A stretch of DNA of 64,000 bases, from the sequence record MT446411.1; one strand, 5' to 3'. The position numbers were made by a program, and so were the translations under genes. The notes beneath the pieces are model-generated. The model was not told the DNA's origin and did no database searches. It worked only from the letters and a program-made list of their open reading frames with translations. The DNA comes from Escherichia virus TH40. Each line of letters begins with the position of its first letter. Position 1 is the stretch's first letter. This document shows, one piece after another, positions 3,372-64,000 of this stretch.

Positions 3372-3379
3372 TATAAATA
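3372..3379 (+). promoter_or_regulatory. T4-type late promoter TATAAATA for t
   Basis: Exact TATAAATA 18 nt upstream of the t ATG, followed by SD aaggag. Confidence 0.7.
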
Positions 3380-3397: not shown

Positions 3398-4051
3398 ATG
3401 GAACCAAAAGTAGGAATATCAATACCCGACCTACTTTTTGGACTTCTTGATAGAATTTTTAAAGATAATGCGACCGGGAAAGTTGTTTTTTCCCGGGTAC
3501 TAGTTATTGTTCTATTATTTTTAATGGCGGTAATCTGGTATAAAGGTGATGCACTTTTAGATGCGTACAGGGATGCTTCATATGCCTCATACACTGAAAT
3601 GATAAGGCAAGACCAGGATAACAGATTTAAAATTGCAGCTATCGAGCAAATCCAGATAGTCCACTCGTCAAGTGGAGCAGACTTTACAGCAATATATTCC
3701 TTTAGACCAACTAACCTTAACTACTTTGTGGATATGGTGGGATACGAGGGAATATTGCCTGATACAGTCGACGAAAAAAATTTAGGTGGGTTTCCAATAG
3801 ATAAGACTTCAGCGGAATATTTGGCGGGGGTTAATGGTAATTATTTTGAATCCAGTGTGGAATCTGTATTCTTACCAACAAAGAAAAAAAGCAGCTTCAC
3901 ATATATGTTCAGCTGCCCATTCTTTAATTTGGAAAACGTTTATGCAGGCACAGTCTCACTGTACTGGTATAAGCAAAAACCCGACCTTGGTTTTGATAGG
4001 CTTTCTTCTATGTGTGGACAAGCAGGTCGTACGCTCGGGCGTACACGTTAG
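3398..4051 (+). CDS. t: holin t
   Basis: 217 aa; LLFGLLDRIFKDNATGKV... N-terminal TMD matches T4 T holin; late promoter and SD upstream. Confidence 0.9.
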   Translation: MEPKVGISIPDLLFGLLDRIFKDNATGKVVFSRVLVIVLLFLMAVIWYKGDALLDAYRDASYASYTEMIRQDQDNRFKIAAIEQIQIVHSSSGADFTAIYSFRPTNLNYFVDMVGYEGILPDTVDEKNLGGFPIDKTSAEYLAGVNGNYFESSVESVFLPTKKKSSFTYMFSCPFFNLENVYAGTVSLYWYKQKPDLGFDRLSSMCGQAGRTLGRTR

Positions 4052-4323
4052 AATCCGGAGGTATACATCATAAGATAACGGTGTATATCTTCGAATCCTT
4101 CGTTAAATTGTTCAATGATTTGTTCAATTTCATCTTCAGATAAACTTTTAAACAATTTGTTAAACGATACATTGTTTAACTCATTCCCATTCTCATTTCT
4201 CAATCCCAACTCATTCAAAAACGCGATAAACACATCGCGCTTCATCGTAATATCTTCCCGGTCGGTTTTAATCAAAATTGAAGTTATAGTAACAATTTCA
4301 GAAACGATTTCAAATTTAGTCAT
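4048..4323 (-). CDS. asiA: anti-sigma70 protein AsiA
   Basis: 91 aa; ...ITSILIK..REDI...FIAFLNE...FNEGFE..RYL.MYT matches T4 AsiA; adjacent to t. Confidence 0.9.
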   Translation of the reverse strand: MTKFEIVSEIVTITSILIKTDREDITMKRDVFIAFLNELGLRNENGNELNNVSFNKLFKSLSEDEIEQIIEQFNEGFEDIHRYLMMYTSGF

Positions 4324-4372
4324 TTTAATTTACTCAAGTATTCAATAAGACATTCAATTATTCAGTAAGGGT

Positions 4373-4401
4373 ATTATACTATTATTCCTCTGGGTTGTAC
4401 A
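4373..4401 (-). promoter_or_regulatory. early promoter (-35 TGTACA, 17 bp, -10 TATAAT) for asiA
   Basis: TGTACA at 4396-4401 and TATAAT (rc) at 4373-4378 upstream of asiA. Confidence 0.45.
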
Positions 4402-4546
4402 CATGATTTTCCATCTGTACAACATATTCCTGATACATCTGTTCAACTGGTTCCTGGAACTTAAAATCAGCTCCAAGGAATTCCTCAAAGCAAGCCTGCT
4501 CGTGCGTACGTTGACCGGTGATGGTGTTCTCTAAGTTATGACTCAT
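4382..4546 (-). CDS. small acidic hypothetical protein (54 aa)
   Basis: Sub-threshold ORF MSHNLENTITGQ... in the asiA-arn gap. Confidence 0.3.
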   Translation of the reverse strand: MSHNLENTITGQRTHEQACFEEFLGADFKFQEPVEQMYQEYVVQMENHVYNPEE

Positions 4547-4635
4547 AATGATTCCCTTTGTGCTTCTGCTTACGTTTGGACTGCATTTTGGTTTTCTTCT
4601 TGTCCTTATGGACAGACGCCTTATTGAAATCGTGC

Positions 4636-4914
4636 TTAGCTACCAGATTGTTCATGCAATTTCCTTAATTGATATTCAAGAGAACTGATAATTTCTTTAT
4701 TAGTTGCAATATACATATCACGTAGGAAGGGTTTCAGACCTTCTCTAACTCTATACGTGTTATCACTAATATCCTTTATATATTCATGGTCTAAAGCATC
4801 CCAAGCCGGCTGGTTAACATAAGTTCCCCAGTTGTCTTCCATCATAGTGTTCAGACGTTTGATATGATTGATATGGGTTTCGATTGCATCAATCTGGAGT
4901 TGTTTAAGGTTCAT
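4636..4914 (-). CDS. arn: possible Arn (anti-restriction nuclease) homologue
   Basis: 92 aa acidic protein; T4 arn-like length and position next to asiA; sequence identity not verified. Confidence 0.4.
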   Translation of the reverse strand: MNLKQLQIDAIETHINHIKRLNTMMEDNWGTYVNQPAWDALDHEYIKDISDNTYRVREGLKPFLRDMYIATNKEIISSLEYQLRKLHEQSGS

Positions 4915-5525
4915 TAATAAAGGTCCTCTGAATAAAGTTCTTTTTCACTACCGCCACGTTCAATACGCACTTGATTTGCATAAGTCGCAATAATCATTGC
5001 TTCTTCGCGGGTCCAGTAATTGCTGTACTGGTCAATGAATCCTTGATTATCACCACAAACATGGTCTGACACAAGTTTATCACTTACTTGGTCAAGCACT
5101 TCTGCCATATCCTTGGAATAATGTCTGGCACCAGGAATAACCAGAGTCCCACCATCTTTTAACTTAAATCGGTTGGCGGCACATACAATCCGTCGCTGAT
5201 ATTTTTCATTGTTATTCCAATGCGCAATCTGCCAACAGATTTCCGGGACTTCTTCCAGAATATCTTTTTCATCGCATGTGTATCCATGTGCTTTAAATTT
5301 TTCAGCGAGGCTTTTGGGGGTTTCACGCGATTCTGGTGCTGGTAACATTTCTAAACGAGTGATAAACGGATTCATTTCACAATTACCTTCTTCATTATAT
5401 TCGGTGTAATCACCGTATGCATGTAATTTAGCAGCGAGACTTTCAGGAGTCTCCCGAGAAAGAGCTTTATCTAACAAGGCCATACGGTCTTTAAAGGATA
5501 ATGCTTTACCTTTTAATGGATTCAT
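4914..5525 (-). CDS. hypothetical protein with internal duplicated ~25-aa segment
   Basis: 203 aa; [18 protein letters not shown].. repeated as [18 protein letters not shown].. Confidence 0.55.
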
Positions 5526-7247: not shown

Positions 7248-8623
7248 AGAGCCTCCAAATCATTAAGGTACTCAGTTTTAACGTCAGTTGTCTTCCAGTA
7301 CTCATGCTCAGCTTTCTTAGCCTTAGCTTCGTCCGCAAGCTTCTTAGCTTCATCAGAGGTCATATGGTAGATGTTCATTGCCACTAACTTCTCTGCATAA
7401 TCGCCATATATTTCACTCGCCTGGAGCTCCTCAATCAACTTCTTACGAGGTTTCCCCTGGATAACAACCTTACCATCAATCACTTCTTTAATAAAGAAGA
7501 CTTTCGCGCGGGCCAGTTTAAATGCCGCTTCAGTTTCTTTAATCTTACTGTCAATTCGCACTTGGACATAAGTCTTACGGACATCAACGAAATCGCGAAT
7601 CAGGTCAAGCGTGTTGGTGTATTCAGCCAGTTTGCCTTTATGATTAAGCACCGTTAAGTTCTGGGAGAGCTTCTCAATCAGACCAAAGTCTTTCATGATT
7701 TTCTCATGATTTTCTTCTTCAGTGCCATCCAGCTTGTATTCCTTACGGAATTTAATCTTAAACCCAAAACCATGCTCGCCACAGTTATCTTTCCAGGTGA
7801 TAAAACCTTTCTCTTCCAGCGGGTCCAGGATTTTACTTGTATACTTTTCCAGGTTCCATTGGACCGGGATTTCAGTAATTTCCATTTGAGTCCTGGAAGT
7901 CATTTTGTACGTGCCATGAAGCTCATACTTACCAGGCTCTTCCAGCTCAACAACTTTACCACGGAATTCTGGATATTTTACTTTCGGAGCAACCGGCTCA
8001 CGACCTTCCACGATAGCTTTAACAGCTTCCTTGACGTCCTGGAACGAATGAGGAAGGATATCAGTAGCAAAGCCAACAGCAATCCCAGAAGTGGCGTTAA
8101 GTAATACAGTAGGAATAACAGGAAGATAAAAAGCAGGAGGCTTATGTTCTTCATCAGGATGGACCGGAGCATATTCTGTATCCTTAAACAAGTTATAAAA
8201 GTTCTTTGAAACCCTTGCGAATACATAACGAGCTGATGATGCTTCTGGCACCATTCTGGAACCAAAGTTACCTTGCCCATCAAACATAGGATATTCATTT
8301 TTATATGTTGCGACCAAACCAGAAGTTGCTTCTTCCGCTGATGCTTCACCATGGTGATAACCATAATCAGCTACGCCCCCTGCGATGGATGCAACCTTAT
8401 GGAATTTATTCTTATCACCACGTGCCAGGTCTAATGCTCTCGCCATAACAAATCTGTGAACTGGTTTAAAACCATCAATCATGTTTGGGATGGCACGACC
8501 TTCCACAGTGTAGATAGCATATGACAATGCTTCCACATCAATAATGTCTTTTAGACTGCGTGGGTTAAGGGTCCCCATGGAATCACTGAACTGTTTGGAC
8601 ATCATACTTAAAACGTCAGACAT
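7244..8623 (-). CDS. 52: DNA topoisomerase II medium subunit gp52 (GyrA-like)
   Basis: 459 aa; ...AIPNMIDGFKPVHRFVMARA... Confidence 0.9.
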   Translation of the reverse strand: MSDVLSMMSKQFSDSMGTLNPRSLKDIIDVEALSYAIYTVEGRAIPNMIDGFKPVHRFVMARALDLARGDKNKFHKVASIAGGVADYGYHHGEASAEEATSGLVATYKNEYPMFDGQGNFGSRMVPEASSARYVFARVSKNFYNLFKDTEYAPVHPDEEHKPPAFYLPVIPTVLLNATSGIAVGFATDILPHSFQDVKEAVKAIVEGREPVAPKVKYPEFRGKVVELEEPGKYELHGTYKMTSRTQMEITEIPVQWNLEKYTSKILDPLEEKGFITWKDNCGEHGFGFKIKFRKEYKLDGTEEENHEKIMKDFGLIEKLSQNLTVLNHKGKLAEYTNTLDLIRDFVDVRKTYVQVRIDSKIKETEAAFKLARAKVFFIKEVIDGKVVIQGKPRKKLIEELQASEIYGDYAEKLVAMNIYHMTSDEAKKLADEAKAKKAEHEYWKTTDVKTEYLNDLEAL

Positions 8624-8631
8624 ATATCACC

Positions 8632-8772
8632 TTACCAGATTAACGAATGTACTGCCATTATAGCATCAGAAATAAAAAGCACAACCTGCACTAATGCAAA
8701 CACAACTCCATAATATAGCGCTACCAATAAGGCAGCAAGGGCTAACGAGTAGCCCAAGATTTTCTTAATCAT
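8632..8772 (-). CDS. small membrane protein (46 aa)
   Basis: MIKKILGYSLALAALLVALYYGVVFALVQVV...; ATGA overlap with upstream ORF. Confidence 0.45.
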   Translation of the reverse strand: MIKKILGYSLALAALLVALYYGVVFALVQVVLFISDAIMAVHSLIW

Positions 8773-8917
8773 TTTTATCCAATAATTTAAATAGTGTTAA
8801 AGTCGCTAATACACCTTGAGCTGTTGACTGCAGAAATACTGAAGTTTCTCCAGTTATTAATGTTCCAACAAATAAAAATGACCAACAGAAAAAAGCTACG
8901 CCATGAACAAATTTCAT
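8765..8917 (-). CDS. small membrane protein (50 aa)
   Basis: MKFVHGVAFFCWSFLFVGTLITGE...; SD gagg; preceded by hairpin element. Confidence 0.45.
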   Translation of the reverse strand: MKFVHGVAFFCWSFLFVGTLITGETSVFLQSTAQGVLATLTLFKLLDKND

Positions 8918-8919
8918 AT

Positions 8920-8985
8920 TTTCCTCAAGGGCGCCCAAAGACGCCAGTTAATTTCAGATTATGACGATGCCATTGCATCGCTACA
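8920..8985 (-). repeat. ~66-bp repeated intergenic hairpin/SD element, copy 1
   Basis: Near-identical to 9184-9249; contains GGCGCC-CAAA-GACGCC hairpin directly 5' of gaggaaaatATG. Confidence 0.6.
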
Positions 8986-9027
8986 GGCAGCAAGGGCTAA
9001 CGAATAGCCCAAGATTTTCTTAATCAT
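8959..9027 (-). pseudogene. truncated duplicate (22 codons) of the 8632-8772 gene N-terminus
   Basis: MIKKILGYSLALAA then diverges where the repeated hairpin element begins. Confidence 0.3.
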
Positions 9028-60945: not shown

Positions 60946-61152
60946 TCACTTGCGACGACGTTTTGGTAATGGTTTAGGGAAGAACATTGCTTTACCTGCA
61001 GGGGTCAAAGTCACATGCAAAGCATTACCAATACCAAGGGATGCTTTAACCAGACCTTTAGCTTTTAACTCACCAAATGCTTGACGTTGTTCAGGGTCAC
61101 GAGTGTTAACCATCAGACCTTTTTCACCAGCAGCTTTGATTAATTCTAACAT
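60946..61152 (-). CDS. hypothetical basic protein
   Basis: 68-aa ORF. Confidence 0.45.
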   Translation of the reverse strand: MLELIKAAGEKGLMVNTRDPEQRQAFGELKAKGLVKASLGIGNALHVTLTPAGKAMFFPKPLPKRRRK

Positions 61153-61193
61153 TTTATTCTCCGTTTGTTTATTTGGTAACTCAGTATGGAATC

Positions 61194-61222
61194 ATTATGC
61201 ATCATGACCATCTGGTTGTACA
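61194..61222 (-). promoter_or_regulatory. early promoter cassette (TGTACA-17-CATAAT), gtaactcagtatgg leader
   Basis: Nearly identical to the 7073-7101 element. Confidence 0.5.
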
Positions 61223-61269
61223 CATATACTAAATAAAAATACTTAATAAAACCATAAAGGAGAAAGTTT

Positions 61270-62016
61270 ATGATTTTATCCGGAAGAACTGTTGATGAAC
61301 TCAATGAAAAAGTCCAGGCTGCCTTGGCTGATAATTGGTATTTGTTTGGTTCTACTATGGTGTTGCCGAATACCCCTACAGATAGCAAAGAGCGTTTTTT
61401 CCAAACTATGTCCAGCTCGGAAACTCAGATACCGGGTCCGCCTGGTCCCAAAGGAGAACCGGGTGTACCAGGACCAAAAGGAGACCCAGGTGGGGATGGA
61501 AAATCTTCTTATCAGATATGGCTTGACTTGGGAAATACAGGAACTGTTGATGATTTTTTAACTGATACAGCAGGAAAGAGGGAAAAATCCGAGGTGTTTT
61601 GGAGTGGTATAAACGTTCTATTAACTAATGGTACGACTTCAAACATAATTAGTGTTTTAAAGGGGATTCCACCGACTGCAGGGACTCTATCTCCGTTTTT
61701 TAGAACCACTGATGATAAGTTGTGGCCATATAACCAAGACAGAAGCCTAATGTTTAAACTCAACCTTATTGGTAATTTTGCAGGAGCCTCGCAAGCTCGA
61801 AGTATAACATTAAATTTCGTTGGAACCAACGGAAACACTTATATACAGAATCGTCCGGAAAATGCTACAGATATTTTGTCTTTTACAACGTTCTTTAGCA
61901 TTGATAAAGATGGGGCAATGGCAACCAATGGTACAGCTATAACTGTTATGCCAAATGGCGGCAACTTTACAATAACCTCTGCATTGTTAGTAGCCGAACA
62001 AACAGCGACTTCATAA
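61270..62016 (+). CDS. collagen-like repeat protein
   Basis: 248 aa; SD aaaggag; G-x-y run GPPGPKGEPGVPGPKGDPGGDG then Asn/Thr-rich domain. Confidence 0.55.
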   Translation: MILSGRTVDELNEKVQAALADNWYLFGSTMVLPNTPTDSKERFFQTMSSSETQIPGPPGPKGEPGVPGPKGDPGGDGKSSYQIWLDLGNTGTVDDFLTDTAGKREKSEVFWSGINVLLTNGTTSNIISVLKGIPPTAGTLSPFFRTTDDKLWPYNQDRSLMFKLNLIGNFAGASQARSITLNFVGTNGNTYIQNRPENATDILSFTTFFSIDKDGAMATNGTAITVMPNGGNFTITSALLVAEQTATS

Positions 62017-62024
62017 ACAAAAAA

Positions 62025-62038
62025 GGGCCGTATGGCCC
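62025..62038 (-). terminator. rho-independent terminator GGGCC-GTAT-GGCCC
   Basis: A-run upstream and TTTTTTG on - strand; sits between convergent genes. Confidence 0.65.
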
Positions 62039-62281
62039 TTAGATTGCACTCCAAAAATTATGGAATCTTATAGTATTGATAGCCCAGTTAACAAACCTGC
62101 GAGTTTGCTTGGGAGTTGGTTTGCATGTGTACTTGATATTGTCCCGACGACCAGTTTCACGACAGACTGCTTCGAGATACCAGCGGCGACCTTTATGAGG
62201 TCTTCCATACGATAAGAAGACCTTGATTTCCTGGTTATCGATAATAGGAATTGTGGTTGTCAAGATATACCTCCTCAACAA
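62039..62281 (-). CDS. hypothetical basic protein
   Basis: 80-aa ORF. Confidence 0.45.
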   Translation of the reverse strand: MLRRYILTTTIPIIDNQEIKVFLSYGRPHKGRRWYLEAVCRETGRRDNIKYTCKPTPKQTRRFVNWAINTIRFHNFWSAI

Positions 62282-63245
62282 ACTTGTCCCAGAACTTCAT
62301 GTCCACCTTCGCAGGCATACCGTTCTTATGAGCCCAGATGGCATTAGTTTCGACTTCATCAACGATAGCTTCAAGTTCAGCCTGTACATCTTTAAAAGCA
62401 TGTAGCCCTTGTTTGATTTCAAGGATAAACGGTGCTGTTCGTAAAGGATATTGAAGGTCACCGGTCATATAAATTTCCTTCAGCTGATATCCAGCACGAT
62501 AAGCATGGCTCAGAGCTTTCCAATCAATGCCTTCATTAGCTTCGGCCTTACGAGCACGTTCACCATATTCAGCATCAAGTTTATTCAGAGATTGCTTGAG
62601 CTCGATTAAGGACAAAGTGGTTTGGTATTTACGACCGAGGACAGTATAGAACGTTTGAGGACCTGTTTTCTCATGGTTATGGAATACCCATTCACAGAAC
62701 TCGTTTTCGGGGAGTCGGTGCTTAATATCTTCTACCTTAGTTCGACGTTGCTTAACAGAACCATCTTCTTGATAATCGACCCACTGTTCAGGAATCTGGT
62801 TAACTATAGCTAGTACACCACGCAGTGCAGCCAGACGAGAACCTTTAACACCATATTTGGAAGCTTGCTTACGGACGTACCCTAAATAGGCTTTCATGTT
62901 AGTTGTATAGAACCGCGAACGGTTGTCTTGAATAAACTTCCATACATCTGGTAAATCGGATTTGACTACCAGGTCAGCCGGTGTGTGAATCATATCCAGG
63001 GCAACGGTTTCACCTTCGGCTGCCAGTTTAAAGAAATATTTCAGGCTATAAAGTTCATGGTCAACATCGTCTTTTGTGTTCTTTGATGCAGTGTTATTCG
63101 TGCTCAGGTTTGTATGGTTCATCGCGGTTCCGAGCAGGATATCTCGCGGATGTGGAACAAAGATTTCTTTAAAATCGACATCAGATTCTGGAGTACTTGT
63201 TCCATAAAGGTGGGAGCCAAAATATCCCTTCATAACTGTTTTCAT
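62235..63245 (-). CDS. predicted nucleotidyltransferase-fold protein
   Basis: 336 aa; N-terminal FGSHLYGTSTPESDVDF fits the pol-beta-type hG[GS]x9-13Dh[DE]h signature. Confidence 0.5.
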   Translation of the reverse strand: MKTVMKGYFGSHLYGTSTPESDVDFKEIFVPHPRDILLGTAMNHTNLSTNNTASKNTKDDVDHELYSLKYFFKLAAEGETVALDMIHTPADLVVKSDLPDVWKFIQDNRSRFYTTNMKAYLGYVRKQASKYGVKGSRLAALRGVLAIVNQIPEQWVDYQEDGSVKQRRTKVEDIKHRLPENEFCEWVFHNHEKTGPQTFYTVLGRKYQTTLSLIELKQSLNKLDAEYGERARKAEANEGIDWKALSHAYRAGYQLKEIYMTGDLQYPLRTAPFILEIKQGLHAFKDVQAELEAIVDEVETNAIWAHKNGMPAKVDMKFWDKFVEEVYLDNHNSYYR

Positions 63246-64000
63246 TATTCACCTCTTTCATAGTCTTCAATAAATTGCATAATTAAACGCTGATAATTGG
63301 ATTTAGGGTATCCTAATTTACTAATATGAGTACCAAAAGCTCCACGCTTTGGCCTATTTAATTTAAGCCATAACGAGTAAAGCAAATCATAATCTTGCCA
63401 CTGTTTTCCTATTCTTTGTTTTGCTTTAGAAGCATCAGATTGTCTCTTTTTAGTCTCTGGATTATTTAAAGATTTCTTAACAGCATTCGAATGACGTTCT
63501 CTAACATCTGGCCGTTTAAATGCTTCTTTAATCGCTTTAGAAATTTTCTCTTTAACTTCAGGACGGTTTTGGGCTTCTATTTGAACAGCCGACATTTTAT
63601 CCTTTATTTTGGGCAGACTCATAGTTATAGAGCGTTTGTTTCTATATTCTTTGGTCTTCCATATTTCTTTCATTGTATTCGAATGAATTTCTGAAAATTT
63701 TTCTCTAACTAATTGGTATCCCCTAGAAGTTAATTTAAGGTTTCTTCCCAGAGAATCTTCGCCGAAGTTATAAAATGACCACCAGGCATAAATTAATCCA
63801 GAAGAATCGGAATGAATTCTAGCTAGAAGCCAGTGTGCTATAAAATGTTCTCTAGCTGTCAACAGAACCAAATTATTAGGTTCATCACTCCCGCCAATAC
63901 ATGACGGGATTATATGATGGGACTCTGTATAAAAATTTAATTTGGATTTGTCTAATCCTCTAAGTTTACCTCTTTGGATTAGACTATCATAAAGCTTGAT
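63245..64000 (-). CDS. HNH homing endonuclease (Mob-like), N-terminus beyond window end
   Basis: Frame open to nt 64000; ...ESHHIIPSCIGGSDEPNNLVLLTAREHFIAH... HNH motif; Lys-rich C-terminal region. Confidence 0.7.
   Translation of the reverse strand: MKLYDSLIQRGKLRGLDKSKLNFYTESHHIIPSCIGGSDEPNNLVLLTAREHFIAHWLLARIHSDSSGLIYAWWSFYNFGEDSLGRNLKLTSRGYQLVREKFSEIHSNTMKEIWKTKEYRNKRSITMSLPKIKDKMSAVQIEAQNRPEVKEKISKAIKEAFKRPDVRERHSNAVKKSLNNPETKKRQSDASKAKQRIGKQWQDYDLLYSLWLKLNRPKRGAFGTHISKLGYPKSNYQRLIMQFIEDYERGE

Follow-up and report, generated by a model that had tools for sequence, protein, structure and literature searches.

Several described systems stand close to the protein reported here, each by a different part of it. 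In phage T4, the decoration protein Hoc sits at the hexon centre, and the tip of the tail is the gp5/gp5.4 spike. In PRD1, the shaft of the fibre protein P5 includes a collagen-like motif. In the podovirus phi24B, cryo-EM located the DUF1737 domain of gp84 at the central pore of the hexons of the major capsid protein, where it forms a hexamer (bioRxiv 10.64898/2026.04.10.717836). For the knob of the Sf6 tail needle, E146, K200, S248 and D250 were reported as the intimate contacts of a bound L-glutamate (Leavitt et al., PMC3741392), and hybrids of P22 indicated that the knob is unneeded for host specificity and only changes the kinetics of DNA delivery (PMC3741392). Since the knob altered nothing but these kinetics in the hybrids, the function it has in needles is not simply transferable to the protein described below.

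The window analysed in this study is a stretch of 64,000 nucleotides from Escherichia virus TH40 (sequence record MT446411.1), a T4-type myovirus of the genus Gaprivervirus (VR7/SP18 group). One gene on its + strand codes for what is probably, judged from its sequence, an optional and late-made virion fibre, most likely on the head, and its product is called the fibre protein in the following. From about 4.9 kb to 64 kb, this is the only + strand ORF with 150 aa or more that is not the shadow of a - strand ORF, and the gene is a lone rightward gene within about 59 kb of leftward genes. An earlier note on this DNA, made from the letters alone, had described a 248-aa + strand ORF with a strong Shine-Dalgarno (SD) sequence and an uninterrupted G-x-y run, and both descriptions hold (Table 1). 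The run (GPPGPKGEPGVPGPKGDPGGDGKS) consists of 8 perfect triplets with 8 Pro and is the sole long one in the window; since the runner-up anywhere in the 64 kb, in all six frames, has 4 triplets, it is not a matter of chance.

The same note let the gene converge on a terminator at 62025-62038. There is indeed a real hairpin at this place, with a folding energy of -12.7 kcal/mol for the + RNA and -14.3 kcal/mol for the - RNA, but it serves the other strand: its T-run (TTTTTTGTTTAT) is found on the minus strand only, where the + strand continues with UAGAUUG. For this reason the hairpin mainly terminates leftward transcription, in the main that of the unit which ends with nrdC.11 and a 46-codon ORF, and the fibre gene has at its 3' side a hairpin that lacks a U-tract. 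Scans of the 64-kb window for tRNAs and Rfam families were empty.

Table 1. Positions of the fibre gene, its parts and the signals around it in the 64,000-nucleotide window.
Feature	Position	Strand	Remark
Cassette (811 bp)	61224..62034	+	blastn against VR7: homology ends at 61223 and restarts at 62035
TAAAAATA	61234..61241	+	late-promoter variant, one mismatch to TATAAATA of T4; 28 nt before ATG
Shine-Dalgarno AAGGAG	61257..61262	+	7 nt before ATG; read directly from the sequence
Fibre-protein ORF	61270..62016	+	complete, ATG start, stop included; 248 aa
DUF1737-like domain, proposed virion anchor	61270..61419	+	aa 1-50; beta-alpha-beta-beta
Collagen-like stalk	61435..61506	+	8 uninterrupted G-x-y triplets, aa 56-79
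Connector module GKSSYQIWLDLGNTGTVDDFLT	61498..61563	+	1 to 5 copies in homologues; marks recombination joint with C6-type knob
Sf6-type knob, TNF-like jelly roll	61564..62001	+	aa 99-244; PF16532
G+C-rich hairpin between convergent genes	62023..62040	-	canonical intrinsic terminator, minus strand only

In comparison with related genomes, the fibre gene is a cassette with sharp borders, lying between the leftward terminator on one side and leftward promoter-like sites (61143-61222) on the other. The region is 97-99% identical in the Escherichia phages TH54, ECML-359, DK-13 and RZ, the last of which is classified in Gaprivervirus (Straboviridae, Tevenvirinae), and the gene is present in only 8 of the 60 related records matched by the 1.5-kb region; in VR7 the slot is filled with an unrelated segment of 397 bp. 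The earlier note had proposed such a comparison as a check on whether the gene is an insertion, and the outcome is positive, with sharp borders and most relatives lacking the gene. The neighbours are a small conserved leftward ORF (60946-61152, PHROG 6001) on one side and the nucleotidyltransferase gene nrdC.11 (62235-63245, Pfam RlaP) on the other, and the structural genes are distant. Full-length homologues lie in broadly the same neighbourhood and are always opposed to their neighbours, in Dhakavirus C6 and AnYang as well as in Tegunavirus fHe-Yen9-01, Pseudotevenvirus RB43 (ORF128w) and RB43-like metagenomic contigs.

Several further observations concern the surroundings of the cassette. 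The segment in VR7 (4323-4719 of the VR7 sequence compared) holds a leftward ORF of 98 codons, ORF099c, which has its own terminator hairpin, a hydrophobic signal-peptide-like N-terminus and a Gly/Ser-rich middle, and at this site the segment takes the place of the fibre cassette as an alternative. The 46-codon leftward ORF (62068-62208, - strand), located between the hairpin and nrdC.11, closes the leftward unit just ahead of its terminator; C6 has it annotated as ORF97, and it has no family match. Directly upstream of nrdC.11 lies a homing endonuclease gene of the mobD type (63245-64000, - strand; PHROG 655, E 8e-31), at a site that is taken by a "membrane protein" gene in RZ, VR7 and C6, and its DNA was found in only 3 phage records (E33, VR26). 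The ORF listed for it has 208 aa with a TTG start and spans positions 69-267 of the 343 in the profile, so its N-terminus may be truncated or frameshifted. At a distance of 1.2 kb from the cassette, the endonuclease could promote co-conversion of the region; in VR26 the mobD-type gene is present and the knob gene is absent.

Regarding the C-terminal domain, which the earlier note had called Asn/Thr/Gly-rich, the composition is as described (N 9%, T 14%, G 9%), but the description is incomplete, for the domain is an Sf6-type knob. Its score against PF16532 is 112.3 bits (cut-off 27), all 11 members of the family match this entry, and PHROG 1030 is matched with E 8.5e-67. When the family profile is compared with known knob structures, 3RWN (Sf6) is found with E 6.9e-47 and 4K6B (HS1) with E 1.1e-46. 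The full-length AF2 model, which was computed from an alignment of 11 sequences, is mediocre (pLDDT 60) and was used for the knob only; Foldseek matches it to 3RWN (E 7e-15, TM 0.78, normalised by target length), and next in rank come PRD1 P5, the knob of the phi812 spike and the lectins BC2L-C and PLTL, which are TNF-like. What is more, the four intimate glutamate contacts of Sf6 map to E108, K163, S210 and D212, which are invariant or nearly so in the family, and the peripheral contact K277 is replaced by Leu in the fibre protein. By homology, and in view of the collagen run, the knob would form a homotrimer. Proteins with this knob carry the RefSeq product label "tail needle knob", and Leavitt et al. 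placed such proteins outside the needle group (PMC3741392).

The N-terminal part of about 50 aa is accepted here as a divergent DUF1737 domain, because four independent kinds of evidence agree, namely recurrence in the family, profile search, hhalign and fold comparison. Against Pfam DUF1737 (PF08410) the protein of the window reaches 13.7 bits (E 0.059), which is below the cut-off of 24 bits; the match recurs in 10 of the 11 family members, with a best E of 6.4e-5, and among close relatives scanned singly an RB43-type fragment (P0127) alone lies above the cut-off, with 26.2 bits. When 1.8 billion representative proteins were searched with a profile of the N-terminus, the matches were family members and five small proteins (P0132-P0136; E 3e-5 to 6e-4), all five of which are above the DUF1737 cut-off of Pfam (26-63 bits). 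By hhalign, the similarity to the N-terminus of phi24B gp84 has E 6.6e-5 and a probability of 64%. The AF2 model of the domain (pLDDT 79) has the order beta-alpha-beta-beta; in the full-length model the strands cover residues 2-5, 24-32 and 42-48 and the helix residues 8-20, and in the pLDDT-79 model DSSP gives the middle strand only as two short bridges. Foldseek of this model against BFVD found annotated DUF1737 proteins (TM 0.7-0.8, probability 1.0, E 0.02-0.09), and a search of the PDB, in a library that evidently lacks the phi24B structure, gave no significant match. At the same time, the "tooth" residue of the phi24B anchor, Tyr42, has no conserved counterpart, and in the hhalign alignment the loop contains 3 more residues and lacks Tyr. 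DUF1737 proteins were also found in giant viruses, among the fold matches in BFVD; giant viruses are not known to have an HK97-type capsid, and since the domain occurs in such viruses, capsid binding by DUF1737 need not be general.

Across the homologues both end domains are constant and the middle region is variable. The collagen repeat (PF01391) scores 17.9 bits here against a cut-off of 27.2 and reaches E 2.9e-15 in longer relatives, the collagen length ranging from 0 to more than 20 triplets: the RB43 homologue (232 aa) has no collagen and one connector, another (P0008) has more than 20 triplets, and two of 380 aa (P0014 and P0015) have five connector-plus-GTNG units. DNA homology to C6 and MN04 begins at about 61498, and the knob half is 90% identical. 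Since homology starts there and pS against C6 jumps from 0.90 in the N-terminal part to 0.11 in the knob part, the collagen/connector region is a recombination joint, and the two ends have separate histories. Against AnYang, fHe-Yen9-01 and RB43, synonymous sites are saturated (pS 0.73-0.83), with pN of 0.19-0.33, and dN/dS is 0.1-0.3 where it can be estimated. Judged by these values, the gene is under purifying selection, and the copies examined, in RZ, C6, AnYang, fHe-Yen9-01 and RB43, are all intact.

On the expression of the gene, the earlier note had found no exact TATAAATA upstream and had left the expression class unclear. The first statement is right, and TAAAAATA, which departs from TATAAATA at position 3 (T-to-A), stands near the gene instead; the second is largely resolved by the homologues. 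An exact TATAAATA lies 22-27 nt before the ATG in the homologues of C6, AnYang and fHe-Yen9-01, and RB43 has CATAAATA. In the alignment, TAAAAATA of the window falls in the same columns as the motifs of C6, AnYang and RB43, and the exact TATAAATA of fHe-Yen9-01, 27 nt before its ATG, lies a few columns further left. As an alternative late motif, ACTAAATA at 61227-61234 was disfavoured, with two mismatches, and no sigma-70-like site was found upstream of the gene on the + strand. In T4, early and middle transcription reportedly runs in one direction only, and TATAAATA is the late promoter that depends on gp55. By these rules and the TATAAATA motifs of the homologues, the fibre family would be a family of late genes. 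Elsewhere in the window, an exact TATAAATA is present at 3372-3379 (+), 18 nt before a + strand ORF of 217 aa (3398-4051), and illustrates a canonical late promoter within the TH40 genome itself; the first 4 kb or so of the window consist of rightward ORFs, presumably late genes.

The position of the gene in more distant relatives bears on where the protein may be found. In the Aeromonas T4-like phage 44RR2.8t.2, a knob protein gene lies between the genes of the major capsid protein and the vertex protein, in the same orientation, and its product of 288 aa has a fibre-repeat N-terminus and no DUF1737. The head module of the Klebsiella 60-kb siphophage Kpn BU9 includes a full-length homologue, whose reading frame begins at the TerL stop codon and whose product has the connector, the knob and an N-terminus that looks similar when aligned by eye. 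The same slot after TerL holds, in related metagenomic siphophage contigs, a protein of 520 aa (P0128, 10001-11563 of its contig), which begins with two tandem DUF1737-like copies (Pfam 19.6 bits, cut-off 24) and continues with about seven "IQWR"-type repeats and then a C-terminal domain of another kind. An N-terminus that stays the same while the tips are exchanged typifies a protein built from an anchor and a ligand-binding tip. As a speculation, a trimer of P0128 would supply six domains, which is the number in the hexon ring of phi24B, and, equally speculatively, three anchor domains could take alternate positions on a six-fold ring.

In addition, there is evidence from proteomics for one relative: gp119 of Salmonella phage Sajous1 (Kuttervirus), a knob-only protein, was detected with 16 spectra in CsCl-purified particles. 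Since the Kuttervirus and Aeromonas relatives have no DUF1737, what they show concerns the knob rather than the anchor. In another protein (P0105), the knob is fused to an N-terminus like that of the T7 fibre gp17, as judged by eye only; being found there and on P22-like needles, the knob is a promiscuous distal tip module. The interpretation in the earlier note is thereby supported in part: its suggestion that the collagen segment marks a fibre or decoration protein gains support from the architecture, from relatives in head clusters and from a relative detected in virions, and the identities of both flanking domains had been missed.

Two side observations belong to these genomes. In 44RR2.8t.2, an ORF of 95 aa (4268-4555 of the sequence compared) lies between the major capsid and knob genes, and could be an adaptor or a decoration partner. 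In Sajous1 (8098-9000 and 4965-5474 of the sequence compared), the gene of gp119 adjoins a tRNA cluster and is near those of gp115 and gp116, which were likewise detected in purified virions as "structural proteins", and the three resemble a minor satellite cluster of virion genes away from the main structural module.

We propose, tentatively and at somewhat less than an even chance, that the protein is a modular, trimeric accessory fibre, made late and dispensable, which is anchored by its DUF1737 domain, most likely to the head, with the knob pointing outward as a lectin-like tip. For this mechanism, the C-terminal Sf6-type knob, a TNF-like domain, would trimerise and nucleate a short triple helix of collagen, some 7 nm long, the rise of such a helix being 0.29 nm per residue over 24 residues. 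The three N-terminal DUF1737 domains at the opposite end would then attach the fibre to the particle, the likeliest place being the exterior of the capsid, at or near the centres of capsomers, as for the DUF1737 domain of phi24B, and the knob would face outward as a tip for adhesion or ligand binding, with ligand pockets at its interfaces. The analysis establishes the identities of the domains, the cassette character of the gene, purifying selection, modular exchange, the late promoters of the homologues and the presence of a knob-only relative in virions; trimer formation, attachment by DUF1737, the head as its site and the adhesive role are all inferred here from sequence and homology. Several points speak against the capsid in particular, namely that every carrier of the fibre gene also encodes hoc, that Tyr42 is absent, that DUF1737 occurs in giant viruses, and that a trimer would have to fit a six-fold ring. 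Further points against the proposal are the deviation of the promoter at position 3, the DUF1737 score of 13.7 bits, the distance from the structural genes and the fact that most relatives do without the gene. The idea that the fibre replaces Hoc was rejected, as all carriers keep hoc, and neither Pfam nor PHROG gave a match of the fibre protein to Hoc (Ig-like) or Soc.

The most serious competitor, although an unlikely one, is a virion fibre on the tail, baseplate, collar or whiskers, which would give accessory adhesion to the host as the label "tail needle knob" implies. P22-like needles have the knob as their tail-tip module, and in P0105 it sits on a T7 gp17-like fibre N-terminus (by eye); PHROG 1030 and other, weak PHROG matches are labelled tail, the Aeromonas homologue has a "phage tail fibre repeat", and Hoc presumably fills the centres of hexons already. 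However, the sole DUF1737 domain placed by experiment, that of phi24B, binds the capsid, the gene order of the relatives is that of head modules and not tail modules, and Pfam detected no known tail-attachment domain in the protein.

Quite unlikely, in our estimate, is a late protein that does not belong to the virion, for instance a soluble trimeric protein of lectin type which is released at lysis and binds debris or the host surface, or else a factor acting on the infected cell. Such a role would suit a site among non-structural genes in a hyperplastic region and a patchy spread, as known for accessory "moron" genes; also, detection in virions is confined to a knob-only homologue and does not extend to the full-length family, and most DUF1737 proteins consist of a single domain. 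Nevertheless, no signal peptide is apparent in the N-terminus, as read by eye, the knob-only homologue is present in purified virions, and the plan of anchor, stalk and tip, in which the stalk varies and the tips are swapped within one fixed slot of a head module, is typical of particle-bound fibres.

Two other readings were rejected. That the gene is a non-functional or decaying insertion is very improbable: it is missing from most close relatives and its promoter motif TAAAAATA is non-canonical, but all examined copies, which come from four genera, have an intact ORF, pN lies at 0.17-0.33 against pS of 0.7-0.9, and the ligand-contact residues are invariant, so that the "decaying remnant" considered by the earlier note is refuted by the selection evidence. 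A true tail needle, an orthologue of gp26/gp9 that plugs the tail channel as the RefSeq name implies, is scarcely credible on its architecture, given that the homology to Sf6 and HS1 which speaks for it is confined to the C-terminal knob (profile positions 106-251), that Pfam finds no needle N-terminal or shaft family where a DUF1737-like N-terminus and a collagen shaft stand instead, that the phage is a T4-type myovirus and not a short-tailed P22-like one, and that Leavitt et al. set these proteins outside the needles.

Going one step beyond the fibre anchored to the head, one may ask whether a second and optional head decoration exists, beside Hoc, in some T4-type phages and in unrelated 60-kb siphophages, as a trimeric fibre, collagen-stalked and tipped by a TNF-like knob, that is anchored by DUF1737 on the centres of capsomers (hexon or penton); we regard this as possible and rather doubtful. 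On this reading, the fibre would be the counterpart, in tailed phages, of the vertex fibres of PRD1 and adenovirus, its swappable tips would serve as lectin-like adhesins in reversible pre-adsorption to host envelopes or mucus, and DUF1737 would be a general "plug-in" anchor for capsids. In the literature we found no paper describing the DUF1737-collagen-knob architecture, its late promoters, its behaviour as a cassette or the gene order in head clusters, and searches for work on the proteomics of fHe-Yen9-01, RB43, KP15 or KP27, on cryo-EM of Ackermannviridae capsids and on PF16532 in T4-like phages yielded nothing on the fibre protein.

The hypothesis of a fibre on the head rests on inference, and it is concrete and cheap to test. 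If it is true, T4-type capsids would have an unrecognised and exchangeable display site besides Hoc and Soc, defined by an anchor of about 50 aa that would be potentially useful for phage display and engineering. DUF1737 would be extended from one podovirus to a portable capsid anchor across phage morphotypes, and the widespread "needle knob" domain of large myoviruses, so far functionless, would receive a testable role. At the least, the label "tail needle knob" is misleading on a T4-type phage, for which "knob-domain fibre protein" would be better.

Compared with known systems, the fibre protein shares with the knobs of Sf6 gp9 and HS1 (3RWN, 4K6B) about 146 homologous C-terminal aa (38% identical as aligned by Foldseek), a fold of the same kind, a TNF-like jelly roll, and the same L-glutamate contacts E, K, S and D. 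The rest is unrelated: the fibre protein has neither the N-terminal domain that plugs the tail nor the coiled-coil shaft of the Sf6 needle, and its particle is that of a contractile-tailed T4-type phage. With phi24B gp84, a NanS-p esterase, it has in common a small N-terminal domain, built of three strands and one helix, from which a linker leads to a functional distal part, and the homology of the N-termini is supported by profile, hhalign and fold, although the similarity in sequence is weak. Unlike gp84, the fibre protein has no Tyr42 "tooth", carries a collagen stalk and a knob in place of the esterase, is expected to be a trimer rather than a hexamer, and belongs to a phage with a capsid protein of the T4 gp23 type and with Hoc also present.

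In its overall plan, the fibre protein resembles PRD1 P5 and the adenovirus fibre, with an N-terminal capsid anchor, as we propose, and a TNF-like knob at the C-terminus, joined by a thin trimeric shaft, and the knob of P5 (1YQ8) is the next structural match after Sf6 (E 3e-4). There is no significant homology in sequence (Pfam PRD1_P5_C has E 0.06 in 2 of the 11 members), and those fibres sit on the pentons of double-jelly-roll capsids, so the likeness is an analogy and not family membership. Like the proposed fibre, T4 Hoc is a dispensable and outward decoration of the capsid which is thought to be adhesive and whose gene lies outside the main head cluster; it differs in being a monomer of Ig-like domains, unrelated in sequence and co-encoded in every carrier. 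Finally, in proteins of the C1q/BclA type, too, a TNF-like trimeric head at the C-terminus nucleates a collagen triple helix, and exosporium proteins of the ExsF type are among the fold matches of the fibre knob; here the likeness is one of fold class only, and the N-terminal anchor and the biological setting differ.
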